Below, piece by piece: positions 2,208 through 23,043 of a DNA stretch of 23,043 nt. The stretch's first letter is position 1; every line of letters starts with the position of its first letter. The notes beneath the pieces are model-generated. The model was given only the letters and a program-made list of their open reading frames with translations. It was not told the DNA's origin and did no database searches. The position numbers and the translations under genes are program-made. Origin of the DNA: a virus; UHGV virus genome UHGV-1317269; one strand, written 5' to 3'.

Positions 2208-2218
2208 TTGTATCGCCT

Positions 2219-4615: not shown

Positions 4616-4649
4616 CAATCCTCGAACTCGCGGGGATTTCTTTTATCTG

Positions 4650-4675
4650 AACTCGCTACGGCGAGTTTTGTTTTA
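4650..4675 (+). terminator. putative intrinsic terminator (AACTCGC-tacg-GCGAGTT followed by TTGTTTT)
   Basis: 7-bp perfect stem, 4-nt loop, T-rich tail, directly after the ASCH-like gene. Confidence 0.45.
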
Positions 4676-4687
4676 TGGAGATGATAA

Positions 4688-4855: not shown

Positions 4856-4868
4856 TGGCGGTTTTTTT
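4845..4868 (+). terminator. putative intrinsic terminator (AAAACGCC-tgat-GGCGG followed by T7)
   Basis: GC stem followed by a run of seven T at 4862-4868. Confidence 0.45.
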
Positions 4869-4879
4869 GGGGGTAGTAG

Positions 4880-5095
4880 ATGGCTGCAATTCACATTGTA
4901 TCAATAACATGCAATGCAATTCAGATAGTTGCTTGCATTATCTTTGTTTTCTCAATCCTTCGCTCCCGACGATATTCTCCAGCAATTAACCGACATCCTG
5001 CACAAGTTGAAGCCGTCAGGATGGCTATAGAGTTACGAAATGAGATGAATAAGGCATTAATGGAGATGGAGAAACCATTCACTGACAAACATTAA
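4880..5095 (+). CDS. hypothetical small protein with hydrophobic N-terminal segment
   Basis: 71-aa ORF directly after the terminator; N-terminus IVSITCNAIQIVACIIFVFSIL looks like a transmembrane helix. Confidence 0.3.
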   Translation: MAAIHIVSITCNAIQIVACIIFVFSILRSRRYSPAINRHPAQVEAVRMAIELRNEMNKALMEMEKPFTDKH

Positions 5096-5203
5096 GAGTG
5101 GAAATAAAGAAATCACACCGCCTCACACTCGATGAGGCCTGTTCATTTCTCAAGATATCCAGACCTACCGCAATAATACCAATTCAATAAATGGAGATTC
5201 CAA

Positions 5204-5551
5204 GTGGAAGAAGAAATCTTCACTCGTGAAGAAGCTGCGTCGTATCTGAAGGTAGACAAAGGCACTATCACGCAGTGGATACGAAGTGGACGACTTCAGG
5301 CCGCAAAGATAAATCCAGATAAACCTAAAAGCCCATATCGCATTTGCAAGTCAGACTGCATTGCGGCGCTTAAGTCTGTGAGACACAATAGCGCGGTGAA
5401 TGCGGTTGATGTGCAGGAGGTTAAAGCATGTCAATCAAACTACGCGGTGGCACGTGGCACTGCGATTTCGTCGCGCCAGATGGATCAAGAGTTAGACGCT
5501 CTCTTGAAACATCGGACAAAAGGCAAGCGCAAGAACTTCACGATCGTCTGA
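5204..5551 (+). CDS. xis: excisionase (P22 Xis-like, HTH)
   Basis: 115 aa; GTG start 7 nt after GGAG (5193-5196); HTH-like EEAASYLKVDKGTITQWIRSGRL; sits immediately upstream of int and overlaps it by 124 nt in another frame, as in P22. Confidence 0.65.
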   Translation: MEEEIFTREEAASYLKVDKGTITQWIRSGRLQAAKINPDKPKSPYRICKSDCIAALKSVRHNSAVNAVDVQEVKACQSNYAVARGTAISSRQMDQELDALLKHRTKGKRKNFTIV

Positions 5552-6588
5552 AAGCAGAAGCGTGGAGAGTAAAAAATCTCGGGGAATCGCCGAAAAAGCT
5601 ATTCAAGGAAGCCTGCATACGGTGGCTGCGTGAGAAATCGGATAAGAAGTCCATTGATGATGACAAGAGCATTATATCGTTCTGGATGTTGCACTTCAGA
5701 GAAACCATTCTCTCTGACATAACAACAGAAAAAATAATGGAGGCGGTAGACGGGATGGAAAACCGCCGCCATCGCCTGAACTGGGAGATGAGCCGGGACA
5801 GGTGTTTGCGGCTTGGCAAGCCAGTGCCGGAGTATAAACCAAAGCTGGCAAGCAAAGGAACGAAGACGAGGCATCTGGCAATACTTCGCGCCATTCTCAA
5901 TATGGCTGTTGAATGGGGATGGATTGACAGGGCGCCAAAAATATCAACACCACGCGTTAAGAATGGACGCATTAGATGGCTTACAGAAGAAGAATCAAAG
6001 CGCCTGTTTGCAGAAATAGCTCCTCATTTCTTCCCTGTTGTCATGTTTGCAATCACGACAGGCCTTCGCCGCTCCAACGTTACAGACCTTGAGTGGTCAC
6101 AGGTCGATCTGGATAAGAAAATGGCATGGATGCACCCTGATGAAACAAAAGCTGGCAATGCGATCGGAGTTCCTCTTAACGAAACCGCATGCCAGATATT
6201 AAGAAAACAGCAGGGTCTCCATAAGAGATGGGTATTTGTCCACACCAAACCTGCCTACCGAAGCGACGGAACAAAAACAGCAGCGGTAAGGAAGATGAGA
6301 ACCGACAGCAACAAGGCATGGAAGGGAGCGTTAAAGCGGGCAGGCATTAGCAACTTCCGATTCCATGACTTGAGGCATACTTGGGCAAGCTGGCTGGTTC
6401 AGTCCGGTGTCTCTCTTCTTGCACTTAAAGAGATGGGAGGATGGGAAACTCTCGAAATGGTTCAAAGATACGCTCACCTTTCAGCCGGGCATCTCACCGA
6501 GCACGCGAGCAAAATCGATGCGATTATAAGTCGCAATGGCACAAATACGGCACAAGAGGAGAACGTGGTTTACTTAAATGTGAGGTAA
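5428..6588 (+). CDS. int: tyrosine site-specific integrase (phage integrase family)
   Basis: 386 aa; AGGAGG 7 nt upstream; catalytic signature residues visible (TGLRRSNV, HDLRHTWAS, VQRYAHL); transcribed towards the att core that starts 15 nt after its stop. Confidence 0.92.
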   Translation: MSIKLRGGTWHCDFVAPDGSRVRRSLETSDKRQAQELHDRLKAEAWRVKNLGESPKKLFKEACIRWLREKSDKKSIDDDKSIISFWMLHFRETILSDITTEKIMEAVDGMENRRHRLNWEMSRDRCLRLGKPVPEYKPKLASKGTKTRHLAILRAILNMAVEWGWIDRAPKISTPRVKNGRIRWLTEEESKRLFAEIAPHFFPVVMFAITTGLRRSNVTDLEWSQVDLDKKMAWMHPDETKAGNAIGVPLNETACQILRKQQGLHKRWVFVHTKPAYRSDGTKTAAVRKMRTDSNKAWKGALKRAGISNFRFHDLRHTWASWLVQSGVSLLALKEMGGWETLEMVQRYAHLSAGHLTEHASKIDAIISRNGTNTAQEENVVYLNVR

Positions 6589-6602
6589 CTTATTGATTTA
6601 AA

Positions 6603-6648
6603 TGGTGCCGATAATAGGAGTCGAACCTACGACCTTCGCATTACGAAT
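6603..6648 (-). other. attP core: 46 nt identical to the 3' part (anticodon loop through CCA) of a tRNA-Thr(CGU) gene, thrW-type; not a complete tRNA
   Basis: Reverse complement reads ATTCGTAATGCGAAGGTCGTAGGTTCGACTCCTATTATCGGCACCA: anticodon loop with CGT, T-arm GGTTCGACTCC and 3' CCA; the 5' half of the tRNA is absent (homology stops at 6648). Confidence 0.8.
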
Positions 6649-6931
6649 CTGTAGCACCTATCATAACTATCTGTTTTAGCAAGCATTAACCGCATTCACT
6701 AAGCTATAGTTGATGGCACAAACAGAAAGCTGATGCATGATGTTGTCATGTGTATGTCACAAATACGGCACAACGATCTTCAAACATGTAGCCACACATC
6801 AACAGAAGAGCACAACGCCTTGCAATCAAGTGCAAAGCTTTGTGTGCATCAGTTTTGTCTCATAGGTAATGAGGCTTTAACTGCGATGCAGTAATCCATA
6901 CTAAAATTTACTTAAAATTCATAAATACACC

Positions 6932-6965
6932 AGATAAAAACAATCCCGCATTTTTTATGCGGGAT
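6932..6965 (-). terminator. intrinsic terminator downstream of the tailspike gene
   Basis: ATCCCGCA-ttttta-TGCGGGAT hairpin (6943-6965) followed on the minus strand by TTGTTTTTAT. Confidence 0.55.
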
Positions 6966-6983
6966 ATACTGCATTTATTGCAA

Positions 6984-9689
6984 CTACATTGCCATTAATA
7001 TAAACATAGCCAATTCGTCATAACGAATTCCGTAGCGTCCTCCTGCTTTTTTTACAAGAATCATATCTCCTGTTTTATATTGAGAATAAATTTTCTCACC
7101 TGTATCAGGATCTGTGCTCTCTTCAGTTATCACCTCTTCATCCCATACGTCAGGCCATTCATCGTAACACCAAAAAGCATATTGCTCAGGGTTTAAACCA
7201 TGCTTTCTAAGAATATCCCCTACGGTTTGAGCGCCAACGCCAAAATGATACCTGGACGACTCAATTCCTTTGTGATTAATTGAGTCATTAAATTTAAATT
7301 TATAGATGACTGACTTTATTTCAATAGCGGCATCACGCTCTGCATTAAGAATATCATATCTTGTTTTAAGAGTTTCATCTGATGTATTGATTGACCCGGT
7401 TCCTGCATAAATAACAGAGCATCTGTTTGATGGCTGTCCAATAGCTTTAACATTATCATCAACAGGAGCTATTTTATTAGCATCTGCCAACCACCAGTCT
7501 GTTCCATCAGCGTGACCGATTCTTACTCTTATCCCGCTTCTAATATTTAAACTTCCAGTATTACTCTGTAAATTACAATCTCCTGACGTTGGTCCAAGCA
7601 GTACAGTTTTACCAACACCACATACTACTCTGGCATTTCCTTTTTGTGATACGAGTCTTGACTCACCTCCTGACTGCTCAGGAAGAGATTTATGGTCTAT
7701 AAATGCATCGCGGGGGTTAAATACACCGTCTCCAGAATTATATCTTCCTCCTGTATAGTTGTTAAATACAGGACCCCAGTCAACGCCATTGCCTTCAGAG
7801 CACCCGACCATTCTAAGCACTCGAGTATTCCCTGCTGCATATGGTAATGAGCTTGTTGATTGCCGGGAAGCTATCATACGTGCTCCATAACCAATAGCAT
7901 TACCACCATTTATAGTTACATATGCTTGCTGGCTTTCGAAATATGTACTGTAAAAGTTCATATTTCCACAGTCATGTAGATGAATAAGAACATCATCCCA
8001 TCCCTGAATGGTTCCTGCATGTACCTGTACACCGCGAACTGGTTCCCCTGAAACCTCCATACACTCTGATGGCCGGCTGAATGGCTGAGACAGGTATTGC
8101 GATGTGGCAAGCAGATGTGTGTGGTGATACAGGCTGGTAATGTAGCAATCGAAAAATTGCGTTCCCGCCATACCAAAGTTATCTATGTCATTTCGCCGTA
8201 TAGTAGAACCTACTGTTGCCTCAGAAGCGTTAGACACTCCAGTAAATACTAACTTATCACCGGATACGGATAATCCTGAATAAGTGAAATTCCTGCCTCC
8301 AGATCTTAAAACCCCGGACGTTTCGAAGGTGTGGCTTGCTGACCATGGGATTTCGATAGTGCTGGACGTTACCGCTGTAATTCGGAATACATCATGGGCG
8401 CGGATCGAAACACCCTTGAATCCTTGGAATCTACAGTGATAATAGTTTTCATCCTCGCCCTGAGCAGCCAGCGTGCCAGATACAGGAATGTTCGTTTTTA
8501 AAAGTGCCGTCTTGCGCCAGTATCCAACCACCTGCAAATTGCGGTATTCATTGCCAAAAGACGCACGTGACCAAATACCTACATCCCACTCATCGCCAAG
8601 ACCGGTATTTGCAATGTCTTTATAACCATCCAGCCCATTGAAATATGGAACAATACGAAAGTTCTCAAGGCGAACACATCCTGTCTCAGGCATCAATATT
8701 GCGGCAGAGAATGGTTTAAGTGTGGCTCTTGTAGCCCCATTAGCATCACCGTTAGTAAAATCCAATAAATCATATGATGAAGCAGGTGCCGTTGTTGTAT
8801 ACGGGTCTTCGGAAGATGGATTAGAAACCACGCCACCACTAACATCCATATTAGAAACACAATCTACAGTATATTTTTTATTTCCTACCCCGTACATCAG
8901 GAATGTGGTCCCTGTGGTAATATCAGGAGCAAATGTTGCAGTATATCCTGAGACCCATTTGCCCACACCAAGACAAATTATCCCACCACCAGAAACAGGT
9001 GTTAACGTATCCGTTATTACATACGCATTATCAGTACCATAAATAACCTTTCCTGTGTTAAGGGCAGCTTGCCACGCGGCCCAGTCTATTGACTGAGATA
9101 ATGAGTCAACAAAAGGATATAAGGATTTTGCTTCAGAAATTGAAGAAAACCACTCAGATAATGGATGATATTTCCCATCCCCAATTGCTCCAAATTGTTT
9201 TACATTTAAGAAAAGAGCATTGTTTTCATGCTGAGTTATAGTTACAGCCCCGGTAAATGGCTGCCTTACCCCAATTAATGCATCACCTTTTGAATCATCA
9301 TTAATGTATGCTCCTGATTGAGATAACTGCTCTTTGAAGTCTGGGCCAAACTGATCTGGATCGTATTTTAATACATTTGGGAAATAAAACTGCTGAGTGC
9401 CATAAGCATCGTAAACAGCCATAGAATGGCCTTGCACAGTTACGAACTTGGCAATCTGTCCGTTATATACCGGATATCCAGCAGCGTTAATGATGATTGG
9501 TTGCAAAACAGGAACGCGAGAACCGTCTTCGTTCTCTACATAAACCTGAATCTGGTTTTCAGGATTTACCGGGTCAGTGTCAATTTTTCCGATATAAATT
9601 TTGCCATTGGCAACCGCTTTAAAAGAACGAGCCATAGTGAAGAGTTGCGAAGGCATGCTTACCACAACATTGGCTGTAATGTCTGTCAT
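6984..9689 (-). CDS. tailspike protein: P22 gp9-like N-terminal head-binding domain, divergent receptor-binding body, C-terminal intramolecular-chaperone (peptidase S74-like) domain
   Basis: 901 aa; first ~110 aa ([11 protein letters not shown]...[32 protein letters not shown]...VLKYDPDQ) match the remembered P22 tailspike N-terminus; central region rich in G/S/T/N repeats; C-terminal [11 protein letters not shown] fits the S-D-x3-K autocleavage motif of chaperone domains. Confidence 0.88.
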
Positions 9690-9747
9690 TTAATTTGCTC
9701 CAGATACAAGGAATCTCCGCAGCGGGGCTACGGTGAATTTTGGGCAT

Positions 9748-9770
9748 AAAAAAACCCAGCCGAAGCTGGG
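9748..9770 (-). terminator. intrinsic terminator between ant and the tailspike gene
   Basis: Minus strand reads CCCAGC-ttcg-GCTGGG followed by TTTTTTT. Confidence 0.6.
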
Positions 9771-9789
9771 TAGTTGCGTTGGTTATCTG

Positions 9790-10692
9790 TCAGTGGTTAT
9801 GTACTGAAGGAGGTAATTCTTTATTCTTAAGTCTCATCCATGCGGAAAGATTCGTTGGTCCGTCTGGCTCATTGATATCAACATCTCGTGTGTGATTAAT
9901 TAAAACGTCCCTCGCCATTCCGATAACATACGAGAACTCATGACCGTAGTCGTAGCATCTGCCGGAATAGTTCGATTGAATTTGTTTTAATGCCGGATAC
10001 AGTTCGCGGAATAATGCCTGTGAGCGATTGGCATAATCCCATAGCCATACAAGGCTGTTTGCTTCTTTTGCAGAAAGCTCGTTGGTTTTCTTCTCTTGTT
10101 TGCCAATGAACTCACCTTCAAGCACTACCCTGTGGATGTACTCTACGGCTTTCGGTATCTGAGATGCATCAAGCTCTTCAATACTTTCCACATTGAAACG
10201 CTGATGAATCATTGCATAAGCTTCTGGGTACATTAGATGCTTTTTGCTGACCAGCATATTTACAGCATCACGAAGCGGAGTCCTGTCATCAACAGATGTT
10301 TTCTTACGTGCATTTTCTGCCTTTCCCTTCGTCCAGTAGTCATGCAGCACAGTAAAGCATTCTTCCTGGTACTGAATCAGTTTATCACGGATGTCAGCAC
10401 GAACTTTCTCAGGGTTGATGCTGAACAGCCATCCATTTAACTTCTTCAAAGGAAGACAGAGTAGCTTACGAAGCTTACCATCAGCGGCAACCATGTTCAT
10501 ATGAACACAGTTGAATTTGCTAATCTGCTTCATGAGTTTTGTTTGCTGCGTTGACCAGCTCATTCCAAGGTTTTCAACGATTGGCTTCATCGCAACATAT
10601 GCAACTCCGGCAGCCATGGCGGTGATAATTTGCTGACCGTTGAATGGTACGTAAGAGGTGTTCACTGCTTCTAAAATTGCTATACTATTCAT
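9790..10692 (-). CDS. ant: antirepressor Ant (P22 immI)
   Basis: Start set at MNSIAIL (ATG 10692, GGAG upstream), giving 300 aa, the length of P22 Ant; directly downstream of arc as in P22; the upstream in-frame extension used by the ORF track is not adopted. Confidence 0.7.
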
Positions 10693-10693
10693 G

Positions 10694-10760
10694 TTGGTTT
10701 TTCTCCACGGATTTACTGACAAACGAAGCCCTGACTGTTCCCGCAGTTGGGGCTTCAACT
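10694..10760 (+). ncRNA. candidate sar-like antisense RNA region covering the ant ribosome-binding site (by analogy with P22 sar)
   Basis: Plus-strand -10-like TATACT at 10681-10686 inside the start of ant; extended hairpin GAAGCCC...GGGCTTC at 10725-10756 in the arc-ant spacer. Inference only, exact ends unknown. Confidence 0.3.
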
Positions 10761-10922
10761 TTACGCGCCAATGCGCCCTTCCTTCTTAAAGCTTTCCATT
10801 ACTCTCTGATAAATCTCAGAGTTAACAGACCGACCATTCTCTTCCGCCACCTTGCGTACCAAATCCAATACTTCTTTAGGCCACCGCAAATTGAACTGCG
10901 GCATTTTGCTCATTCCTTTCAT
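10761..10922 (-). CDS. arc: Arc repressor (ribbon-helix-helix)
   Basis: 53-aa translation [53 protein letters not shown] is essentially the P22 Arc sequence as I recall it; the ORF track's N-terminal extension is not used. Confidence 0.95.
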
Positions 10923-10936
10923 GTTCACCTCACAAT

Positions 10937-10957
10937 ATAGGTCCACGGTGGACCTAT
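10937..10957. promoter_or_regulatory. Mnt operator (O_mnt), overlapping the Pant promoter
   Basis: Perfect palindrome ATAGGTCCACGGTGGACCTAT, the known P22 mnt operator. Confidence 0.8.
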
Positions 10958-10964
10958 TGAGAAT

Positions 10965-10985
10965 ATAGTAGAGTGCTTCTATCAT
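10965..10985. promoter_or_regulatory. Arc operator (O_arc) in the divergent Pant/Pmnt region
   Basis: ATAGTAGAGTGCTTCTATCAT, matching the P22 arc operator sequence. Confidence 0.8.
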
Positions 10986-11012
10986 GTCAATACACTAACT
11001 TGGAGTGATGGC

Positions 11013-11264
11013 ATGGCTAGAGATGATCCGCACTTTAACTTCCGTATGCCTATGGAAGTAAGGGAGAAATTAAAATTCAGGGCGGAGGCGAATGGGAGAT
11101 CAATGAACTCCGAGTTGTTACAAATCGTCCAAGATGCTCTATCAAAACCATCGCCTGTGACTGGATATCGTGACGATGCAGAACGACTCGCTGATGAGCA
11201 GTCAGATCTTGTTAAGAAGATGGTGTTTGATACGCTGAAGGATTTGTACAAAAAACCCACCTGA
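11013..11264 (+). CDS. mnt: Mnt repressor (maintenance of lysogeny; ribbon-helix-helix)
   Basis: 83-aa translation MARDDPHFNFRMPMEVREKLKFRAEANGRSMNSELLQIVQDALSKPSPVTGY... matches remembered P22 Mnt; divergent from arc. Confidence 0.95.
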   Translation: MARDDPHFNFRMPMEVREKLKFRAEANGRSMNSELLQIVQDALSKPSPVTGYRDDAERLADEQSDLVKKMVFDTLKDLYKKPT

Positions 11265-11278
11265 CGGTGGGTTTTATT
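11250..11278. terminator. bidirectional intrinsic terminator shared by mnt (+) and the converging minus-strand accessory operon
   Basis: AAAAAA-CCCACC-tgac-GGTGGG-TTTTATT; the mnt stop codon lies in the loop. Confidence 0.6.
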
Positions 11279-11699
11279 AGTGCTTGTATAGCTTGAACTC
11301 CCTGTCGAGCCATAAGACATAAAAAGTGGCTCCTATCTTATAACCAACCATAGGTGCCTTAGAGCAAAATCTGAACGCAATGAAATCCACATCTTGAGTA
11401 ACATGCTTAGGAATCGGAGCCTTTATCGCGTTTCTGGCAATTTTTTCCGTCCCAAGCCCGTGTTTATCAGATTTTCGTATCTCATCCCATGACATCTGAC
11501 TTAACCTGAACAGCCTATCTGCAAATGCTGCCTTTTCATGCTTTTGGCAGCAATCCAGGCAATACCCCTTTTGTAGGTATCTAAGAGAAAATACAGGCGG
11601 ACTTTTTTCTACATCATGAGATTCGTGATGGATAGAGAGGCCAACAGTAGCAGAGCTCTCTTTATCCCTCTGTTTTATTCTTCCCTTAACTCTAGACAT
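11277..11699 (-). CDS. hypothetical 140-aa protein, candidate toxin/effector partner of the upstream Panacea-domain protein
   Basis: Starts 5 nt after the stop of the upstream gene; no confident family assignment from reading; contains an R-x4-H element (RKSDKH) and a beta-rich C-terminus (MVGYKIGATFYVLWLD). Confidence 0.5.
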   Translation of the reverse strand: MSRVKGRIKQRDKESSATVGLSIHHESHDVEKSPPVFSLRYLQKGYCLDCCQKHEKAAFADRLFRLSQMSWDEIRKSDKHGLGTEKIARNAIKAPIPKHVTQDVDFIAFRFCSKAPMVGYKIGATFYVLWLDREFKLYKH

Positions 11700-11704
11700 A
11701 CACG

Positions 11705-12148
11705 TCAGTTAATTAACGTTTTGAAAAAACCTTTCATAGAATCAAGTGTGATTTCTTGGCTAACCGCACCCTCAATGTAAGCATCTTTCCATGGCTGCTC
11801 TTCGTGAGTCATATTGCGCAGTTTCCAGGCAGAAAACTGACCATAAACTTTATACACCTCATCCAGCAATTCAATTTCATCTTCACTGAATTTTTTAGCG
11901 TCAAAGTTTTCTGGCGCAGGTAAAGCTCCGTTACCACAGTCCCTATATTTACGATACAATTCAGGAACTACTGGCCCATGCATCCAGGCTTCAATTTTCT
12001 CATTAAATAGCGGCTTACCCAGAAGAACCAGAGAAAACCCTTGGGCATAATACGTCAACTTCTGAATTTTTAGGTTAGAGATAATGTCGCCACTTTCTTC
12101 ATCGCAATGCGCCAAGAAGTAGTCGGCGACATCAAAACAAGTGAGCAT
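11705..12148 (-). CDS. Panacea-domain (DUF4065, PanA/SocA/GepA-like) protein, candidate antitoxin
   Basis: NLKIQKLTYYAQGFSLV...FNEKIEAWMHGPVVPELY resembles the conserved core of DUF4065 as I recall it; start placed at the Met 7 nt after GGAGG (the ORF-track start is 2 codons upstream); AT-rich relative to the late genes. Confidence 0.55.
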   Translation of the reverse strand: MLTCFDVADYFLAHCDEESGDIISNLKIQKLTYYAQGFSLVLLGKPLFNEKIEAWMHGPVVPELYRKYRDCGNGALPAPENFDAKKFSEDEIELLDEVYKVYGQFSAWKLRNMTHEEQPWKDAYIEGAVSQEITLDSMKGFFKTLIN

Positions 12149-12522
12149 AAACATACCTCCATCTTGATAGCCGCAGCTATGTATACAACTGTGTCAAGTT
12201 GCATTTAATACCATAACAAAGCTGTCATCAATCCTTCAGAGGCTAACTTACAACCACTTTCTCGACACGTTTAAATCATTACGTTTCACATTTACTGCAT
12301 TTTCGCCGAAGTTACCTATAAGGTAATGTCACATTTCCTGCAAGTTTCATGCAATGTTGAAAAGTGAGCTATTCACTTTTCTATGACACTAAACACCAAA
12401 AATAGCACTTTTTGCTAAATCATTCGTCCAAGTTGTGGATGGCTTGTCGTTGACACGTTTTCACACACCACTCCACCAATACAGTATCATCTGGTATCCT
12501 GCTCAAAACTAAGGAGGTTGGT

Positions 12523-12729
12523 GTGAAGCGATGGGTTATCGGTCTTGCTGCAGTTACTGTTTTTATTTTCTCGGCTTCGACTGGTTACGGGGTTAGATTC
12601 TCATCATCAAGAATCAACGATAAGATTGAATGCAGATACATAAGTGTTTCCGGCAAATTCTCCAGAAATTACTGGTATTCAGATAATGGAATCATGGGAA
12701 TTAGCAATTGCCCTTTATTTGACAGATAG
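12523..12729 (+). CDS. small membrane-anchored or secreted protein (68 aa)
   Basis: GTG start 5 nt after AAGGAGG (12511-12517); N-terminal hydrophobic segment WVIGLAAVTVFIFSAS. Confidence 0.4.
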   Translation: MKRWVIGLAAVTVFIFSASTGYGVRFSSSRINDKIECRYISVSGKFSRNYWYSDNGIMGISNCPLFDR

Positions 12730-12746
12730 CCATCCGTGGCTCCTAT

Positions 12747-13037
12747 TCATTTTTTACAGGCGATGAGCAGATTCCTTGATATGGTGTTACCTGCAAATGC
12801 CATCTCTGGGTTTGCCGTTGCCAAAAATCCTTTGTCTCCTGCAGATGTCAAGACATCATATCCTTTGCTTCCACACAAATCGCCAGCCTTGGTTAGACAC
12901 ATACCCCATGAACCACCAAGACCTGAGCAATCAATAGTGTATGCCTCTCTGCCATCAGGCGCGTATGTTTTAGAAGATGTTGCACAACCAGACAAAAGAA
13001 TGACATTAAAACAAGCAACTGCAATGATCCGCTTCAT
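12747..13037 (-). CDS. putative lipoprotein (accessory gene downstream of gp16)
   Basis: MKRIIAVACFNVILLSGC is a signal peptide with a lipobox (LLSGC); Cys-rich mature part; preferred over the overlapping opposite-strand ORF 12736-13074. Confidence 0.5.
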   Translation of the reverse strand: MKRIIAVACFNVILLSGCATSSKTYAPDGREAYTIDCSGLGGSWGMCLTKAGDLCGSKGYDVLTSAGDKGFLATANPEMAFAGNTISRNLLIACKK

Positions 13038-13132
13038 ATCAATTTCCATATTTACAAAACCGGAAACATCCTAATGACAAAACAATCAAATGTGAAGCAC
13101 GAGATAAGATCAATCCATCCGTGGACGACTAA

Positions 13133-15259
13133 TTACTCCTGTGTCATTCCGCTTAGCGATGCCACAATCCCAGCCCTCGCTAATTGCTGAAACTCTTCGT
13201 TTCCGACTGTATCACGTATCGCTTTTACGGCAGCTTTATTTGCCATAAATCTGCGTTCAGCCGCCACTAATGCTTCTTTGCTTCCGCCTGCTCTTACTGC
13301 TTTAGTTGCTTCCTGAACTGCTTTCTCTATCGCATACCGACCACTACGTGTGGTGGCAATTTTAGATACAGCGCCTTTTAACCCAGCGCCAACTAAAGCA
13401 CCTGCGGCAGCGCCTGCAATGCCTCCTCCAGCGCCACCAACAATGGCACCTGATGTTGAGTTGGCAATTGCATTTAACACTGTTGATGTGACGTTGGATA
13501 AACCAGCATCCAGATCGCGTAGTACATTGGCAGTTCTCCCTGTTCTTTCAATATACTGCTGAGGTTTCACTGCTGCTCTTGCAAGAGTGCCATATGCATC
13601 AGCAATTCTTCCAAGCTCTGAGGAATATCGGCTAATGGCTTTTACATTTTGTGGAGTGAGTATCTCTGCGATATGGTTAATTCCTGCGGCATCAGCTTTG
13701 CCACCACGTACACCATGCGAGATGGCATCCTGCAACATTGATGATATAGCAGGAACACGCTCTGATTCTGGCAGAGCGCGGATCATAGAATGGAATCCAG
13801 CAGGACCATTGAGACCTTTAGCTGACGATGATTGAAGAGATTTTACTCCATTCGTAATCAGTGCATCTGTTGCCAAATCACGCCCGAAAACAGACTCTGC
13901 ACTCTCTTGTGCTGATAATCTCGCTTTAGACAGATCATTAGCTTTTTGCCAGTCATCAAGAAATCCGCCGTTTTCCGCCATTGTGCGCATATCATCAGTA
14001 ATTGCCCGGCGTATTTCCCCTGCTCTCCTTGCCGCATTTGCCTCTCCGCTACGCTTATATTTTTGCTCCGCATCAGCAAATTTCGCTCTCCATGCTTTCA
14101 TGCCATCAAATGTTACTCCACCTTGATTGTTTGCCTGAACAAACTGTTTCATTTCAGTAGTAAGCGGTATGCCGGCAGATCGCTCTGCCTGAATAACGGC
14201 ATTACCATTTAGCATTCTTGCTTTTTGATTTGGCATTGTTGACCGCACGTCATCCCATGCCGCGCGCTCGGCATCCTTCATCTGATCAAGATTTTGAAGA
14301 ATCCTTTGTTTTATAGCCGCACTTTTTTCTGATGCCGTTCCAGATGCGGCCCCAAATTCATCAAGGTTTCGACTTAACTTTGATGATATTTCGTTAAATG
14401 CTGCCTGATGGGCGTCCTGAACAATTCCTGGTGTTGATGCCAATGCGCCTTCGGCTTGTGCAATTCCACGACTTCCAGATCGCATTCCTGGTGTTAATGC
14501 GTTTATATCAATTCCAGCAGACTCAGCCGCTTTTGCTACATCTTCGGACACATTAGCGGCCTGTCTGGCAATTGACTGACGCCCAGCACCTGACTTTGCC
14601 ATCCTGGAAACATCATTAGCAGAATTCAGTGCTGCACCACCAAGAGCCTGTGAAACCCTTGGCGCAATAACGCGCCCGACACCTGAAAGAACGCCTTGAG
14701 CACCAATATTGATACCACCGTTAATGGCAGTATTTTGTGCAAAATCACCCTCCTGATTTGCAGCATCAGCAAGAGAACCTGCAATCATGTTTCCTGCGGA
14801 ACCGATGTCTCCTGCGAGCTTTGCTGGCGCTCCAGCAGCTTTTGCCGCTGTGCCAATTGGCAGGAGATACCCACCAATTGTTTCACCGGCTTGCGCGTAA
14901 GGGTCTGTCGGTCGATCGACTGGACGATAGACATCATCCAATACTTTTGGCCCACCAAGCCCCTGACTGATTGCATTAATCAGGCTTGCGCCGCCCTGCA
15001 ATACGTCAAATGGTATGTTTACCAGACCACGACCAGCCTGCTCTGCAATTTGCCCTGCACTTTGACCACCTGTGAGCCAATCGCCAGCTTGTTGCATCAA
15101 TGATGGTTCTTCACGTGCTGGTTCATTATTGGCCTGATTAACTGTTTGTTGCTGAACAGCCTGACCAGCAAAATACTCATCAATGGCGGTACCAATATCT
15201 TCCGTGCTCGTACCATCAGGGAAGGTAAATTTCTTACCGTTTGCAGTTACTTTCATCAT
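13133..15259 (-). CDS. ejection (injection) protein, P22 gp16-like
   Basis: 708 aa, in the gp16 position after gp20; Ala/Gly-rich low-complexity stretches; stop/start overlap with the upstream gene. Confidence 0.7.
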
Positions 15260-16668
15260 TCCACCGTAAATTGAATGCCTGATTTTGAGGTATATGATCC
15301 AACCTGATTCCGTGGTTCTCCTGAAGGTGTCGAATCTTGTGCTGGCGCTGCGTCAGTATTCATTGACATATACCGCTTAACGGCACTCCCCAATGATTCA
15401 CCTTTTTTAACATCCAACCCCAATATCTGACCGCCATTACGCGATTGTCCAGGGTTGCCATTCGCGCTCATCCACTCAGCTTTAAACTCATTAAACTGCG
15501 CGTTTCGTCGCTCAAGGTTTGCCATTGCATCAAGCCATCTTGCGACCGTCTCAGGGTTATCCATGTCAGTTGGCGCACCCTGTCGAACAATCTCAACGTC
15601 TTTATCCGTTGCTGGGCCGGGAGGTAGGAATTTAAGAACCTGACTGTTAACAAGGGCATTTTGGCGAATGCGCAAATCACGCAATGTCGTATCGCTTCCG
15701 GTAAGTTTTGCGAACATGTTCTGTGCGTTACCGAACAAACCGGTCGTTGGTTTTTCTGCTCTGAACTGTTGAGCAAGCGCACTCATGGAATTGGCTGAGT
15801 TTGATGATGCTGTGGCATTGTTTACAGCCGTCTCGATGCCTTTTTCCATGTTTACTGACAGCTTAGGTGCTTCGCTAATCAACTGCTGAGCCTTTTCCTG
15901 CGCTTGCTGCATCTTAAACCCGAACTCTTGCTGATCCAGAGCCAAGCGTTGTGCTGCGATATTGTGCCCAGTCATTGCTGACTGATAGGAAAGGTTTTGC
16001 CCTCTCGCCTGAAGTGCTTCACCAGCCTGATTGCTGCGGATTGTCTCTGCCAGCCTGCCTCGGTCAATTTCACGAACAGCCATCTTGTCCTGAACATTGA
16101 AGTAATCAATCGGACCAAGAGCAGCCATCCCAAGGTGATCAACAAACTCACCAAATCCTGAAGGATTCTGCTGATACATTTTCGCCACATCCAGAGGGTC
16201 TACTCCGGCACGAGTAAGCTCAGATGAGTTGTTCTGCAACCATGACATCATGGCTTCTGGAGATGAAGCTGCCAGTCTGGCACTTGCTGCCAGTGTGCCG
16301 ACAGTGGAACGCTGGTCTTCATCGACAAATTTCATGCCGTTTCTTACAGCGTCAAACTGCTCAGGATACTGTGATGCCAGTTTTCGCATTGCATCGCGGT
16401 CACCAGATGTATATGCATCAGCATAAGCCTGCTGAAACTCTTGCTGTCGCTTCTGCTGATCCATCTGCTTATACATATCCATGACAGATGAAATGCCCTG
16501 CAAAGCCTGCAAGCCAACGTTATTACGTCCTGAACGCTCCATCTCGTTATTCTGTCGAATGTATGCAAGCGTGGCGTCTGCATCACTTGCTCTTGGAGCG
16601 TTGGAGTTCATGCCGCCTAACCCGGCAAGAAGCGCGCCTGAATTACCAGCCTGTTGCCATGTAGCCAA
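15256..16668 (-). CDS. ejection protein, P22 gp20-like
   Basis: 470 aa (P22 gp20 is about this size), located between the gp7 and gp16 homologues. Confidence 0.7.
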
Positions 16669-16680
16669 GAGACACCTCCA

Positions 16681-17334
16681 TTAAAAAAGTGAACCAAGAA
16701 GACCGACGCCAGCACCAATTGCTGTACCCCAACCAGGCATGATTGCAGTACCTGCAGCTGCACCTGCTGCCGCTCCACCCAAGGCGCTCTGAAATCCTGA
16801 TGGTTTATTCGCATTAGCCGCAGATGCTGCCGCCTGCTGTTGATACAATTGGCTGACGTTGTTAGCGTAGTTCTGCCCAGCGTTTGCCTGACCTGTAAGA
16901 GCACCAAGGCCGATATTTGCCAGATTGTTGTAGTTGTTCATCTGACCTGACAGCCAGTTTTGACCGAGTGTAGGTGCGATTGCTGCTAACTGGTTTCCTG
17001 TTGCTGTAGAGCCTAATCCACCCGTTGCCTCTGCTGCTGCCAGACTCTGATAGCGCGCCTGCCCTGCAAGGTCTTTATACTGCTGAGAGTTGTAATACTG
17101 GTTAAGCGCCTGACCTTGCCCCTGAAGAGAGGAAAGATTTTGCAACTGTGATACGTACTGCTGAGCGAGTGGCGTGAACGGTGCAAGGTTCTGCATGTTC
17201 GTTTGCCACATTTCACGCTGCAATTCGATGCCCTTTTCAGTTGCGCGTGCCTGGGCTTTTGAACCGCCATCACTGCCACCTTTGCAGTAAACAGTTTTGC
17301 TGAGGTGCTTATTGGCAATCTGGAAAATTAACAT
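16681..17334 (-). CDS. ejection protein, P22 gp7-like
   Basis: 217 aa, Q/A/G/N-rich, position between gp14 and gp20. Confidence 0.65.
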   Translation of the reverse strand: MLIFQIANKHLSKTVYCKGGSDGGSKAQARATEKGIELQREMWQTNMQNLAPFTPLAQQYVSQLQNLSSLQGQGQALNQYYNSQQYKDLAGQARYQSLAAAEATGGLGSTATGNQLAAIAPTLGQNWLSGQMNNYNNLANIGLGALTGQANAGQNYANNVSQLYQQQAAASAANANKPSGFQSALGGAAAGAAAGTAIMPGWGTAIGAGVGLLGSLF

Positions 17335-17791
17335 TCTTTAGCTCCTCGTATTTTGAGCGCGGTAACTGATAAATCGTGATGCCTACAGGCTTTCCATTGC
17401 TGGTATAAGCATCATCGAGGTGACCAACACGGGTAGCGCCAAGCAAACGGATAATTGCCCGTCCGTATTTCGTTGTGTCAGGAACCATGGTGATGCTGTT
17501 AAGGAATGGTGAGTTTTCGAGAAGCCATTTGCAGAATAATCGATGCCCTTGCAGTGCATATTCACCACGGAATCCGGGGTCGTACACCGCATGGCATTCA
17601 ACAACGCTATGCCAGAAGTTACGCACTTCATGAACGCCAGCCAGCACTAATCCTTCGTAGATGCCGAGGTATACCGCATCAGGCTTGATGTAGTATTTAT
17701 CTCCACTGTCTACGATATTTCCCGTGTTTGCCGGGTTGTTGAGGAATTCTGCAAGCTTCACCGGATTATCGATGAGCTTTATTTCCATCAC
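17309..17791 (-). CDS. P22 gp14-like protein
   Basis: 160 aa; position directly after the tail needle gene with an ATGA overlap. Confidence 0.6.
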
Positions 17792-18636
17792 TGCTCCGCA
17801 ATGATTTTGATGGTTGTGGCAGTAAACGCCGCACCATTTGACTGAATGGTTAACGTGCTGCCATTTGTGGCAAGAAAGCCGTCTTTATCCACGCTGAAGA
17901 ACGTAGCTAACAAGATGTTATCGGTTGTTGTCGCCGAGTTGCGACTGCTTACCAGTGTGTCAGGAACAGAGCCGGAAAAGGTTAGCTGCATTGACCTGTT
18001 GGCGGTTCCGCTGGGCCACGTCCCGACGATCGACAGCTTGAAGAACAAGGTTTTGTTCTCGTTGAACACAACCATCTTGTTGTTAACGGTGTCGAAGAAT
18101 GGTGCCAACGTGCCGGATGACGGCGTGAGCGTTTTCAGCAGGCTAACAAGGTTGGTCGGCGCTGTCGGGATGGTTACAGATACGCCAGAGTAAACAACCT
18201 CTGACTTCTTGCGAGTAGTGGCATACTCCAGAGCATCGATGCGCGTTTCATGGTCTGAAACCTGCGATTCCAGCGACTGAACTCTGGTATCAAGCGACGC
18301 AATATCGCTTTCATTCTGAGCGATTCGCGTTTCATGTTCCTGAAGAGTTGATTCTGCCTGGCTGATTCGCTCCTCATGATTAACAAGCGTTGCTTCCGCA
18401 GCAGAAATTCGCTGCTCATGGTCAGAGAGAATCACATCCTGCTCATCGTTCCTGACTTGTGCGTCATAAGCGCCCTGTCCGGCCTCGTTGGCCTTGTTCG
18501 CCACATTACCAACATCAGTACCCTGTGCGATAACGTAAAGCAGATACGACTGCGAGAAGATATTGCGTGGAAGCACTGATGTGTCGAGTCGCGTAGCTTG
18601 GATGATTACCGGCACATTGAGATTCGAATCAGCCAT
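17788..18636 (-). CDS. tail needle protein (P22 gp26-like N-terminus and coiled coil, with an extended C-terminal knob-type domain)
   Basis: [43 protein letters not shown]...[19 protein letters not shown] matches remembered P22 gp26; GGAGG 7 nt before the ATG at 18636; total 282 aa versus about 233 in P22. Confidence 0.85.
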
Positions 18637-19174
18637 TAACATGCCTCCACGATTTACCAGACTGGATATTGTGAATCACCGTCTGACTGACACAGTATTT
18701 TTTAGCAAGCTCTCTTTGATTAACTCCCTTTGATTTCTTTATTTCTATTACTTGCTCATATGAGAGCTTTGAAATTGGATTATTTTCTCCTTTTAAAGCC
18801 GGAAACTTCACCCTGCCTTGAGATGAGCAATGCTTCATATTCTCCTTTTGAGTACACCACTCTAAATTAGAAGCATTATTATTTTTTCGGTTGTTATCTA
18901 TGTGATTTATGAACGGCTTGCCTTCTGGATTGGGGACGAAAGCAAGAGCGACAAGCCTATGCACAAGCCATTTTACTTTAACTCCATCAACACTAAGTGG
19001 CAAATATAGATAACCTTTATTATTCTCGTGTTGTTTTAGCCACCGACCCTTTCTGAGTTGCGTGCTGCCATGCGCAGCCTTAACAACACGTGAGTGAGAA
19101 TATACTCGCCCATCCTCTGTTACGGCATATAAACCTTCATATCCAGGAATATCTTTTGCGTTTTCACTCAACAT
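18629..19174 (-). CDS. free-standing HNH homing endonuclease (NUMOD4-like N-terminus, HNH core, C-terminal HTH)
   Basis: [16 protein letters not shown] (NUMOD4-like), [22 protein letters not shown] (HNH core), C-terminal [19 protein letters not shown]; own AAGGAG RBS 5 nt upstream; conspicuously AT-rich; P22 has no gene between 10 and 26. Confidence 0.8.
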
Positions 19175-19195
19175 ATCTACTCCTTTAGTTTCGAT

Positions 19196-20296
19196 TTATG
19201 TTACACGAATAGAAAGGCCTGATAATGTAACAGGACCTTTTGCAATAACTCTGAATTTAAATCCAATGAGGCGTCTAACTCGACCAACTTTTCGCCATAA
19301 AACGCGATTGTCATATACAAATGGTTTTTGTAATACGACCATTTGCTCACGACCGTAATTAATTCCATCTGTAGTTGCTGATATAAATATTCTATCTATT
19401 CTATCACACACGCCGCCAGATGTTTCTAATTCAAGGTCATTTATTAAAACGTTATCTGCCTTTATTAAAGGAGAATATAAAATATGTTCCTGTTGCTTGT
19501 CGTACTGACTGCTGATATCGAACTGCAATTTCCCGGTCACGGATTCCAGCTTATCGCCGCACGTTATCTGATTGCCTTCGTAAATGAAGTCGATAGCGCG
19601 GTACACATCGTCATACAGGCCTGTTTTCAGTACACACCATTGCGGACCATTGGCGCTTGAAGATGCGTCGTACACGAGAACATGGCGCGGAAGATGGATA
19701 ATCAGCAGCTCATGCGCATCAAATCGCAGAGACTCCATCACACCATCAGCCAGTTCATCAGCAGTGTAGGAGCGGAGAATTTTCTCAATGCTCGCGCTGG
19801 CGATTGGTGATACCTGACCGGAGCCGATGATATACACAGACGGAGCACCTGTTGCCGGATTGCTGATGAACGCATAAGAATCAGAGAATGGCGTTTTGCA
19901 GTAAGTCCCGGCAATGCCTTTCTGCACCATAAGAGATGTCTGTGCGACATACAAAGCAGCACCAACGGTGGTTGCACCCGTCAGGGAGAAATATTCAATC
20001 GTCGATGAACCAAAGCAGACGATGAAATCTCGCCATGTTCCGATGCCGATGATGCCGTCAGGCTGAGACTCTGCGCGATATTGTGCGCTGTAGCGGTCAG
20101 GATGCGATTCGTCTTCAAGGTCAGTGATAAACCATGAATCAGTTCCGTCTTTTGACCACGCATAACGCCCGCGTAAGCGCGTAATGTCACGAACAGAACC
20201 CAACTCATACTGCGTGAATCCGCTGTCTGTAGGCCAGTTTGAGACGGTTTTAACCGTGCCATCATAGCGGTATTCGACCAGTTGACCATTAACGCC
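19196..20296 (-). pseudogene. gp10 (tail accessory/head completion) C-terminal fragment, codons 107-472, truncated at a rearrangement junction
   Basis: Translation from [21 protein letters not shown] onward is colinear with the gp10 N-terminus seen at 22688-23043; upstream of 20296 the reading frame runs into reversed scaffold-gene sequence ([18 protein letters not shown]). Confidence 0.8.
20259..20296. repeat. 38-bp inverted repeat, copy A (gp10 codons 107-119); partner at 23006-23043
   Basis: Reverse complement of 20259-20296 is identical to 23006-23043 (GGCGTTAATGGTCAACTGGTCGAATACCGCTATGATGG); identity stops exactly at 20296/20297. Confidence 0.9.
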
Positions 20297-20297
20297 A

Positions 20298-20627
20298 GCA
20301 GTCGGTGCCGACATCATGCGCCTCTTCCCGGAGAAATCCGCTGCTCTCATGTATCACCTTGGTGCTAATCCTGAAAAAACACGCCAGTTGCTGGCGATGG
20401 AAGGACAATCAGCGCTGATTGAACTCACTCGACTGTCAGAACGTTTAACTCTCAAGCCTCGAGCAAAACCTGTTTCAGAAGCCCCGTTACCTGATGAACC
20501 CATTCAGGGACATGCTGTTGCTGCAAATATCTCTGCGATTGAAAAGCAGATGGAAGCGGCAGCAAACAAAGGGGATGTAGAGACATACCGCAAGCTCAAG
20601 GCGCAACTGAATAAAGGAATTCGATAA
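20298..20627 (+). pseudogene. scaffolding protein (P22 gp8-like) C-terminal fragment, about 109 codons, 5'-truncated at the junction
   Basis: Ends ...[30 protein letters not shown], the remembered coat-binding C-terminus of P22 scaffold; stop overlaps the coat ATG; no N-terminal two thirds upstream. Confidence 0.7.
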
Positions 20628-21922
20628 TGGCATTAAATGAAGGTCAACTGGTCACGTATGCTCTGGATGAAATCATCGAAACCGTCCAGAACCTGACGCC
20701 AATGGCGTCCAAAGTGACAAAATACACCCCTCCGGCAGAATCCATGCAACGTTCAAGCAACACCGTGTGGATGCCTGTTGAGCAGGAAGCGCCAACTCAG
20801 ACTGGCTGGGATTTAACTGGCAACGCTACCGGTATTCTGGAACTGTCCGTGAAATGCAACATGGGCGATCCGGATAACGATTTCTTCGAGCTTCGTGCAG
20901 ATGACCTGCGTGATGAGCGTTCTTACCGTCGCCGCATCCAGGCATCCGCCAAAAAACTGGCGAATAACATTGAGTCAGCAATTGCCAAGCAGGCAACTGA
21001 AATGGGCTCACTTGTTGTTCACGATACCCGCGCAATTGGTCCATCTACTGGCCTGTCTGGCTGGGATTTTGTGTCTGATGCAGAGCGCCTGATGTTCTCC
21101 CGCGAGCTAAACCGCGACATGGGAATCAGTTACTTCCTGAACCCTGACGATTACCGCAAAGCAGGCCGCAACCTGGTAGATGGTGACATCTTCGGGCGCG
21201 TTCCTGAAGAAGCGTATCGCAACGGTACTATTCAGCGTCAGATTGCTGGCTTTGATGAAATTCTTCGCTCACCGAAACTTCCGGCAGTTACCAAGTCAAC
21301 CGCGACTGGTGTAACTGTTTCTGGTGCGCAGAAGTTTAAGCCGCAGGCATACACCCTTGATACCGATGGTAACAAAGAGAACGTCGACAACCGTGTTGCA
21401 ACGGTGACCGTATCCTCCACCACCGGGTTTAAGCGCGGCGACAAAATCAGCTTCACTGGTGTGAAATTCCTGTCTCAGATGGCGAAGAACGTGCTGACTG
21501 ATGATGCTACTTTCTCAATCACCCGTGTGATCGATGGTACTCACATCGAAATCACGCCGAAACCGATTGCACTGGATGACGCGTCACTGACAAAAGAAGA
21601 GAAGGCTTACGCTAACGTAAACACCTCTCTTGCTGATACCACTCCGGTAAACGTTCTGAACGTGGCAACAACCACCGCTAACGTGTTCTGGGCTGATGAC
21701 TCAATCCGCCTGCTGTCTCAGCCGATCCCGGTAACCCATGAACTGTTTGCTGGCATGAAAACGTCTTCCTTCAGCATTCCTGGCATTGGTGTTAACGGCA
21801 TCTTCGCAACGCAGGGTGATATCAACACTCTGTCTGGTAAGTGCCGTATTGCTGTGTGGTATTCAGCATGTGCTGTACGACCAGAGGCAATTGGTGTTGG
21901 TCTGCCTAACCAGACCGCGTGA
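20627..21922 (+). CDS. major capsid (coat) protein, P22 gp5-like
   Basis: 430 aa; [54 protein letters not shown]... is nearly colinear with remembered P22 coat protein. Confidence 0.95.
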
Positions 21923-21929
21923 TAACCAG

Positions 21930-21952
21930 AGGGAGCTTCGGCTCCCTTTTTT
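21930..21952 (+). terminator. intrinsic terminator after the coat gene
   Basis: AGGGAGC-ttcg-GCTCCCT followed by TTTTTT. Confidence 0.65.
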
Positions 21953-21966
21953 ATCTGGAGACAAGC

Positions 21967-22209
21967 ATGACACACATGATCTTTCGTCATGGCGACATGA
22001 AGAAATGGAAAGGCGTTGGCTACGACTTTGAAATCGTGAAAGCCGAAGAGCTTCAGGAATATCTGGATGCTGGCTGGTTTTCACATCCTGATGACCTTTT
22101 GAAGGATGTTGCAGAGCCAGAGCCAGAGCCAGAGCCAGAAGAAAAACAGCGTAAAAAGCCTGGTCGAAAACCTAAGGCGGCAGCAGATGAACCTGACAAC
22201 GAAGGGTGA
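21967..22209 (+). CDS. small hypothetical protein with an (EP)4 repeat and basic tail, between coat and gp4
   Basis: ATG 21967 with GGAG 6 nt upstream; contains the (GAGCCA)4 tandem repeat; overlaps the gp4 start by 23 nt. Confidence 0.35.
22114..22137 (+). repeat. (GAGCCA)x4 perfect tandem hexanucleotide repeat inside a coding region
   Basis: Directly visible; encodes EPEPEPEP in the 21967 frame. Confidence 0.9.
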
Positions 22210-22687
22210 TTTAGTTCTTGCGGCATTACGTAAGCTCGGTGTGGCATCAAATGCCACGTTAACCGATGTAGAACCGCAGTCTATGGAAGACGGCGTCAAC
22301 GACCTTGAAATGATGATGGCTGAATGGCTTGGCGGTGATGTGTCACCAGGTATCAACGTTGGCTACATTTTCGCTGATGCAGATGTCGCTCCAGATCCGG
22401 GAGATGAGCACGGTTTATCAAATAACGCTATCAATGCCGTCATTTTCAACCTTGCCTGCCGCATTGCACCGGATTATGCGCTGGAAGCGTCAGCAAAACT
22501 TATAACCACTGCCAGATACGGGAAAGAGCGACTCGTCAAACTGTCTGCAATGGACAGAGCAAAAGCCGCTAAATGTAAGTCCGGTTATCCAAACCGTATG
22601 CCTGTTGGTAGCGGTAACCAGTTGGCGAAGTGGAACGGTTGGAATTACTTCCACCGAAAGGAACCTTGCGATAACGGGAGCGAATAA
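22187..22687 (+). CDS. tail accessory factor, P22 gp4-like
   Basis: 166 aa from [33 protein letters not shown]..., matching remembered P22 gp4 ([29 protein letters not shown]...HGL...[14 protein letters not shown]); the ORF-track N-terminal extension is not adopted. Confidence 0.8.
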
Positions 22688-23043
22688 ATGCCTATTCAGC
22701 AACTTCCGCTTATGAAAGGTGTCGGCAAAGACTTCCGAAATGCCGACTATATCGACTATCTGCCAGTGAATATGTTGGCTACACCCAAAGAAATCCTCAA
22801 CAGCAGCGGATATCTTCGCTCATTCCCGGGCATTGCCAAACGTTCTGATGTGAACGGCGTATCGCGAGGCGTCGAGTACAACATGGCGCAGAATGCTGTT
22901 TATCGCGTGTGTGGCGGCAAGCTCTACAAAGGCGAAAGCGAAGTCGGTGATGTTGCCGGAAGTGGTCGCGTATCAATGGCGCATGGGCGGACATCACAGG
23001 CGGTAGGCGTTAATGGTCAACTGGTCGAATACCGCTATGATGG
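22688..23043 (+). CDS. gp10-like tail accessory/head completion protein, N-terminal 118 codons (partial, continues beyond window end)
   Basis: ATG at 22688 directly after the gp4 stop; MPIQQLPLMKGVGKDFRNADYIDYLPVNMLATPKEILNSSGYLRSFPGI... matches remembered P22 gp10; not in the ORF track because no stop lies in the window. Confidence 0.85.
   Translation, partial: MPIQQLPLMKGVGKDFRNADYIDYLPVNMLATPKEILNSSGYLRSFPGIAKRSDVNGVSRGVEYNMAQNAVYRVCGGKLYKGESEVGDVAGSGRVSMAHGRTSQAVGVNGQLVEYRYD
23006..23043. repeat. 38-bp inverted repeat, copy B (gp10 codons 107-119), truncated by the window edge
   Basis: Identical to the reverse complement of 20259-20296. Confidence 0.9.

Follow-up and report, generated by a model that had tools for sequence, protein, structure and literature searches.

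The DNA studied here is a 23,043-nucleotide (nt) stretch of the virus genome UHGV-1317269, called the window in what follows. Its late operon, on the minus strand, contains an open reading frame (ORF) for a protein of 181 amino acids (aa) between gp10 and the gene for the tail needle, the homologue of P22 gp26. We consider, with a probability of about 0.7, that this ORF is a free-standing homing endonuclease gene of the I-HmuI type which spreads by intronless homing together with a cassette of 845 nt. The proposal is built on comparisons of sequences and models, and it is from these that we infer nuclease activity, the target, the choice between a nick and a double-strand cut, and homing at the present day. 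In an earlier, preliminary description of the window the ORF was assigned the same length and place, in exact agreement with the ORF list. Its view that a mobile homing endonuclease has entered the late operon is supported, but its picture of a clean insertion of the ORF is not: the inserted unit is the larger cassette, and the endonuclease lineage is old and multi-allelic, not a recent one-off invasion. RefSeq already labels the gene 'NUMOD4 domain-containing protein', and taken by itself it is an ordinary, automatically annotated phage homing endonuclease gene. Within the literature collection searched, no published endonuclease at a P22-like gp10/gp26 junction was found; the matches were an unrelated HNH fusion in the early region of epsilon34 and general reviews.

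Pfam recognizes in the 181-aa protein a NUMOD4 domain (E 2.4e-11, 44.1 bits, cut-off 23.4) and an HNH_3 domain (E 1.7e-10, 40.8 bits, cut-off 24.8), both of which had been anticipated from the translation. The helix-turn-helix (HTH) motif named along with them is less firm, with an HTH_3 score of 17.3 bits, under the cut-off of 23, and three C-terminal helices in the structure model. PHROG 59 'HNH endonuclease' matches the protein with E 3e-58, a search of NCBIfam matched no family, and the sole significant relative in the PDB by sequence is I-HmuI (1U3E; E 2.3e-12, residues 7-152). The AlphaFold2 (AF2) model, made from an alignment of 65 sequences, has a mean predicted local distance difference test score (pLDDT) of 89.7. 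It comprises an N-terminal beta-sheet domain, an HNH core of the strand-strand-helix type and the three C-terminal helices at residues 139-172; the strands at residues 6-70 score 81-96 per block of ten residues. When the model was compared to the PDB with Foldseek, 1U3E was again the single significant match (E 7.9e-9, 182 aligned columns, over the full length), and weak matches to the HTH domains of XRE/SinR proteins were also obtained. Residues H91, N103, N112 and H115 are unchanged across all 65 homologues and their region aligns with the DHKD...NL.W...N motif of I-HmuI. Profile searches thus do find a nuclease motif, HNH_3, and its catalytic positions are invariant.

The gp10/gp26 junction is gene-free in P22, as had been stated, with gene 10 ending at 8206 and gene 26 starting at 8210, and likewise in most relatives, among them Sf6 and Kapi1, where gp10 and the needle gene overlap by one base. 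Empty junctions read ...CAGATAAGGATTGAGTAATGGCT..., where TAATG holds both the stop of gp10 and the overlapping start of the needle gene. Among about 130 phage records that match the region, only Escherichia phage HZ41 has the gene at this site (99.8% nt identity); HZ41 was isolated from a plaque, so the cassette is compatible with viability. The conserved core of gp10 is present in 911 of 5,426 complete E. coli genomes. An AT-rich gp10 3' end is found in 52 of these 911, an occupancy of 5.7%, and in all 52 it runs on into the 5' end of the HNH gene. A sample of IMG/VR loci contained 16 occupied and 62 empty sites. The gene is thus far from universal among related phages, with 52 of 911 E. coli genomes and one of about 130 phage records carrying it, and its GC content differs from that of its surroundings.

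The endonuclease gene is outside any intron or intein: it lies between complete genes and has its own translation signals, and an Rfam search over the whole window gave no group I or group II intron at the gathering score, the sar RNA being the only match. The ribosome-binding site reported for the gene was found as AAGGAG at 19185-19180, 5 nt upstream of the ATG and within the 21-nt spacer that follows gp10. A scan of 17600-20400 for promoters and terminators gave counts no higher than in shuffled sequence and hence no sign of a separate transcription unit. At its 3' end the gene reads ...TGG AGG CAT GTT AAT GGC TGA, in which the start of the needle gene (ATG GCT GAT) is embedded, the HNH stop TGA overlapping the needle start (ATGGCTGA). 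The needle ORF as listed spans 17788..18642, but the start is likely the ATG at 18636 (MADSN..., the start used by RefSeq), which makes the overlap 8 nt, versus 14 nt from the longer ORF start. An overlap of the two genes had been described; contrary to what had been thought, the gp26 ribosome-binding site is not preserved. In empty sites this signal is AAGGA within the 3' end of gp10; in the occupied site it is a new GGAGG supplied by HNH codons.

Comparison of the gp10-gp26 region with relatives that lack the HNH gene, which had been suggested in the preliminary description, places the boundaries of the inserted unit at 18639-19483 and yields a candidate target of 21 nt. Outside these limits the window is again homologous to empty-site phages, from 18638 towards the needle gene (2 nt ahead of its ATG) and from about 19484 into gp10; from its start codon onward the needle sequence is common to the empty-site phages. 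The HNH gene has a GC content of 0.396 and a GC content at third codon positions (GC3) of 0.35, as compared to 0.507 and 0.53 in the gp10 core and a GC of 0.507 in the needle gene. The AT-richness that had been noticed in the ORF is therefore real, but it is not confined to the ORF and covers the last 285 nt of gp10 as well. This gp10 block has a GC of 0.34 (19196-19483, stop included) and a GC3 of 0.18 (19199-19483, the last 285 nt). The last 300 nt of gp10 have a GC of 0.32-0.39 in every occupied locus versus 0.42-0.53, mostly 0.46-0.53, in empty loci, and the C-terminal variants of gp10 in occupied and endonuclease-free loci are about 67% identical in aa and about 60% in nt sequence. When 14 occupied and 61 empty IMG/VR loci were compared, all 91 nt sites that separate the two groups fell in the last 285 nt of gp10 and none in the preceding 813 nt. 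A search for loci that have the AT-rich 3' block of gp10 and lack the HNH gene gave none. One empty site (L042, 3814-3837) has, at the first 9 of the 91 diagnostic sites, the alleles that go with the endonuclease, which indicates a crossover inside the block. The linkage of the AT-rich block to the HNH gene would be consistent with either a co-conversion tract or a resistant variant of the target.

The cassette stands out as nearly identical among loci whose other sequences diverge. An assembly collection has 3,062 blocks in which the exact 181-aa protein is indexed, and the order gp10-HNH-needle holds in all ten places listed for it. These ten places have varied types of scaffold, coat, gp4 and ejection proteins and two types of needle, of 282 and 233 aa. 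Identity across the ten loci is 98.4-100% in the cassette, 92.5-97% in the gp10 core and 81-85% at the 5' end of the needle gene. Within the lineage of the window gene, allele A, the ratio of nonsynonymous to synonymous substitution rates (dN/dS) is 0.06-0.11 at dS values of 0.15-0.51, which means purifying selection.

Three NUMOD4-HNH alleles with 43-56% aa identity occur at the gp10/gp26 junction: A, to which the window gene belongs, B (177 aa), which is commoner than A in E. coli, and D (locus L020). They have the leader, roughly 30 initial codons and six final codons (WRHVNG) in common, and all three are linked to one C-terminal variant of gp10, with at least 92% aa identity over the last 110 residues. 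Homologues with 61-75% identity occupy the same junction in other genera, including a Providencia rettgeri prophage whose locus has 44% GC overall, so that the cassette is barely anomalous there. A further gene, type X, is found at exactly the same gp10/gp26 junction and encodes a protein of 164 aa with HNH_3 (E 4e-16) and a weak AP2 domain; it is bounded by an imperfect direct repeat of 13 nt (AGGCTGGAGTAAT ... AGGATTGAGTAAT) and its C-terminus is QRIE*, like that of gp10. Type X was seen in loci L063 and L087 (both 4104-4598) and L121 (about 4950-5445) and in 16 complete E. coli genomes, and the genomes with type X carry the empty type of gp10 end.

The other end of gp10 has its own endonuclease. 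Type C is a paralogous NUMOD4-HNH protein of 194 aa which is always encoded at the gp4/gp10 junction and was found in 18 complete E. coli genomes, in loci L009, L015, L062 and L081 (about 2010-2735), in L103-L129 (about 2860-3582) and in Salmonella phage UPF_BP1 (L002, 3075-3659). Sites with type C keep a duplicated fragment, gp10 codons 1-32, upstream of the gene, and the 3' end of the endonuclease gene overlaps the start of a variant gp10. The gp10 5' variant linked to type C has 89-92% aa identity, versus 96-100% in most loci without type C. The 21-nt leader is nearly identical in A, B, D and type C, and the leader plus the first 47 codons of type C nearly match the window gene, which hints that endonucleases with different sites have swapped a 5' module. 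Each clade is confined to a single site: A, B and D are found at gp10|gp26 and C at gp4|gp10. The two sites flanking gp10 assort independently: there are loci with no endonuclease, with C alone, with A or B alone, and with C accompanied by A, B or X.

A candidate target follows from the empty sites. The junction CAGATAAGGAT-N-GAGTAATGG contains, in 55 distinct empty sequences, an 11-nt invariant run, one of the three longest, and right after it another invariant run of 9 nt. The near-invariant 21-nt empty junction CAGATAAGGATNGAGTAATGG, which is destroyed by the cassette, is our putative target, and in empty-site DNA we would expect a nick or cut in or near CAGATAAGGATTGAGTAATGG. The 21-mer is present in every fetched empty junction except those of P22, L083 and L106. 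The window has no copy of it, even with 3 mismatches allowed, nor has any A, B, D or X locus. L083 (4084-4110) and L106 have variant empty junctions (...CAAATTCGTCTGGAGTAAAATATGG...) without the 21-mer, and these may be resistant empty alleles.

In the mechanism that we propose, lytic growth would bring about transcription and translation of the gene as part of the late operon. The protein would bind a long asymmetric site by means of its N-terminal NUMOD4 sheet and the C-terminal HTH, after which the HNH centre would nick or cut the genomes of related P22-like phages or prophages without the gene. Repair from the endonuclease-carrying genome would then copy the 845-nt cassette into the recipient, which amounts to intronless homing and would cause localized marker exclusion. 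The foreign gp10 3' end that travels with the HNH gene would represent a resistant gp10 end. With its own ribosome-binding site, the new one for the needle gene and the overlap of stop and start, the cassette would keep the operon working.

Several observations weigh against this proposal. The bases of the 21-mer also form the needle ribosome-binding site and the stop/start overlap, so that their conservation needs no nuclease. The left boundary of the cassette is the same in all alleles, which points to one ancestral block and not to repeated independent co-conversion tracts. An occupancy of 5.7% is low for efficient drive. The ten loci compared above were picked for an identical HNH protein, and the identity figures are thus biased for the HNH part, although not for the gp10 block. 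Inactivated copies exist as well: an IS1 element sits a few codons into the HNH gene in L011 (4099-4907) and in E. coli M160133 (H128, H214), which is among the 52 genomes with the AT-rich gp10 end. Finally, in the mosaic lambdoid phages a heterologous block between conserved flanks is also moved as a unit by ordinary homologous recombination.

These points lead to the alternative that survives best, which we nevertheless regard as rather unlikely: the cassette may be a passive mosaic module that came from a P22-like lineage of lower GC, is moved only by homologous recombination in the gp10 core and the needle gene, and no longer homes. The endonuclease would then be kept for some other benefit, or because its clean deletion would harm the expression of gp10 and gp26. 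The fixed left boundary and the low occupancy fit such a module, the Providencia locus with its GC of 0.44 suggests an origin of this kind, and mosaicism among P22-like phages is high, with the types of gp4, gp10 N-terminus and needle assorting freely. Against it, the dN/dS of 0.06-0.11 shows maintenance of the protein itself, its catalytic residues do not vary, and diversity is far lower within the cassette than in its flanks. Moreover, one junction is used by two unrelated HNH families and by three deep alleles, and a paralogue lies at the opposite end of gp10, a pattern that is hard to account for without targeting by a nuclease.

That the enzyme serves mainly in competition between phages, degrading or disabling superinfecting relatives to the benefit of the phage or lysogen rather than copying itself, seems improbable to us. 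There are documented cases in which I-HmuI-like enzymes exclude markers (PMC2988022, PMC12724721), and the gene resides in a temperate phage, which will often meet related prophages. Such a role overlaps with the homing explanation, however, and does not replace it. The location in the late operon and the lack of a promoter- or terminator-like signal above chance nearby make expression from a repressed prophage unlikely. PADLOC gave no defence match beyond 'homing endonuclease': only two of its 'HEase' (homing endonuclease) models were significant for the 181-aa protein (E 8e-27 and 4e-4). For this reason, and in view of distribution, location and domain type, the gene was also rejected as part of a defence system. 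A morphogenetic or packaging HNH protein like those of HK97 (gp74) and GVE2, acting in terminase function or virion completion, was rejected on distribution, location and domain type too and is very improbable: the gene does sit in an operon of structural genes, and HNH proteins have packaging roles in other phages (PMC12724721), but such genes are universal in their lineage and stand beside terminase or portal genes, whereas the window gene is absent from 94% of P22-like gp10 carriers and from the viable phages P22, Sf6 and Kapi1, lies between gp10 and the needle gene without adjoining the terminase, and has the NUMOD4/HNH_3/HTH architecture of I-HmuI.

A wider extension of the homing proposal is doubtful. 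The gp4-gp10-gp26 cluster might be a battleground of competing homing endonucleases, in which NUMOD4-HNH A, B and D and the HNH-AP2 protein would target the same 21-nt junction, the paralogue that shares the leader and the N-terminal DNA-binding module of allele A would target the 5' end of gp10, and the AT-rich recoded gp10 ends would act as immunity determinants. If this holds, P22 and Sf6 would offer a tractable system for endonuclease turnover, for the switching of specificity by module exchange and for drive between prophages and phages. Should the window enzyme be active, it carries part of an essential virion gene, the C-terminus of gp10, from one P22-like phage or prophage to another that is otherwise divergent; it would then be a concrete driver of P22-like mosaicism and a possible cause of marker exclusion in mixed infections. 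Homing between temperate phages is directly testable here, with the excellent genetics of P22, Sf6 and HK620 and with natural genomes that are occupied (HZ41, the DLL7555 prophage) or empty (Sf6, Kapi1). As a tool, a new nicking enzyme of the I-HmuI type with a defined target of roughly 20 nt would have modest value.

Coordinates of the cassette, its parts and the adjoining genes in the window (residue numbers for the protein domains).
Feature	Position	Strand	Basis
Whole cassette, 845 nt: gp10 3' block, leader and HNH gene	18639..19483	-	Comparison with empty sites
HNH endonuclease gene, free-standing, I-HmuI-like, 181 aa	18629..19174	-	ORF list, Pfam, PHROG, PDB, AF2, Foldseek
NUMOD4 beta-sheet domain, N-terminal	Residues about 7-60 of the 181-aa protein		Pfam, AF2 model
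HNH_3 catalytic domain	Residues about 70-115 of the 181-aa protein		H91, N103, N112, H115 invariant
Three-helix HTH-like domain, C-terminal	Residues 139-172 of the 181-aa protein		AF2 model
Spacer from gp10 stop to HNH ATG, 21 nt, ATCGAAACTAAAGGAGTAGAT	19175..19195	-	After the gp10 TAA stop
gp10 3' end, heterologous, AT-rich: last 95 codons and stop	19196..19483	-	GC 0.34, 52/52 linkage, 91 diagnostic sites
gp10 gene (Phage_stabilise, P22 gp10 family, E 4e-218), upstream flank	19196..20350	-	Pfam
gp10 conserved core (head-completion / DNA stabilisation protein)	19484..20296	-	88-95% identity to relatives
Needle ribosome-binding site GGAGG inside HNH codons Trp176-Arg177	18644..18648	-	Read from the sequence, compared across alleles A, B and D
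Tail needle gene, P22 gp26 homologue, Sf6-type knob, downstream flank	17788..18636	-	Phage_tail_NK, E 1e-117

The needle gene is followed by homologues of P22 gp14, gp7, gp20 and gp16. The window as a whole is near-identical to a P22-like prophage of E. coli DLL7555, in the permutation of the phage: 1-6648 is the integrase end of this prophage and 6598-20296 its part from tailspike to gp10. The integrase gene int (5428-6588, plus strand) is joined directly to the tailspike gene (6984-9689, minus strand), which is the attP permutation; in the DLL7555 prophage the two ends are about 40 kb apart. The minus-strand late operon extends up to 20296, where a strand-switch junction (20293-20296) with an overlap of 4 nt occurs. 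From there, 20293-23043 is the reverse complement of DLL7555 sequence that begins in the scaffold gene and leads back across coat and gp4 as far as the 5' end of gp10, and its last 38 nt (23006-23043) are the reverse complement of 20259-20296. The junction truncates the N-terminus of gp10 and also the scaffold gene, of which profile positions 203-301 are left. Neither the 5,426 complete E. coli genomes nor the fetched contigs with the exact 181-aa protein contain this junction. It may be a chimeric assembly or else a genuine fold-back rearrangement; in neither case does it affect the endonuclease locus. The sar antisense RNA (10693-10760, plus strand; RF00262, 92.3 bits) lies among arc and antirepressor-like genes, which confirms an immI module of the P22 type. 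Close to immI, about 11705-12154 (minus strand) corresponds to 13306-13755 in the DLL7555 prophage (L005), annotated there by RefSeq as a Panacea domain-containing protein, and an ORF of 140 aa (11277-11699, minus strand) adjoins this gene. The Panacea domain is typical of PanA antitoxins.

Among characterized enzymes the closest relative is I-HmuI, the nicking homing endonuclease of Bacillus phage SPO1 (PDB 1U3E). It is of similar size (174 aa versus 181 aa) and likewise consists of a NUMOD4 beta-sheet, an HNH domain and a C-terminal helical/HTH domain, with the catalytic His and Asn residues aligned. The two proteins are about 27% identical in sequence, and the window protein may or may not share the nicking behaviour. 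Unlike the window gene, which is free-standing between structural genes, I-HmuI is encoded in a group I intron of the DNA polymerase gene.

In genetic behaviour, the free-standing endonucleases of the T-even phages are the nearest model. They drive co-conversion and marker exclusion (PMC2988022), and intronless homing has been established for the seg and mob genes (PMC2988022, PMC2790892). Similar to the window gene, seg and mob genes lie between conserved genes, are sporadic in relatives and are inherited along with their flanks (PMC2988022, PMC2790892), the latter property being matched in our case by the 52/52 linkage to the gp10 3' end. The hosts of the T-even genes are lytic T4-like phages, whereas the window gene belongs to a temperate P22-like podovirus. 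The NUMOD4-HNH-HTH composition of the window protein also differs from the Mob architecture.

In the lactococcal Skunavirus phages, I-HmuI-like HNH genes vary in presence and number and are found in the morphogenesis module as well as in others; their phylogenetic clusters follow the insertion site, and marker exclusion by them has been reported (PMC12724721). These genes resemble the window gene in being free-standing and I-HmuI-like and in the pattern of one clade per site (PMC12724721); they differ in host phylum and phage family, and marker exclusion, a prediction for the window gene, is experimental there (PMC12724721). Among phage records the closest paralogue is the type C gene SPUPF_00057 of Salmonella phage UPF_BP1, with 54% aa identity. 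Its leader and first 47 codons are near-identical to those of the window gene (86% nt identity), and it too lies within a P22-like head-completion cluster. Unlike the window gene, it is located at the gp4/gp10 junction, with duplicated gp10 codons 1-32, a gp10 5' end of its own and a C-terminal extension of 15-20 aa.

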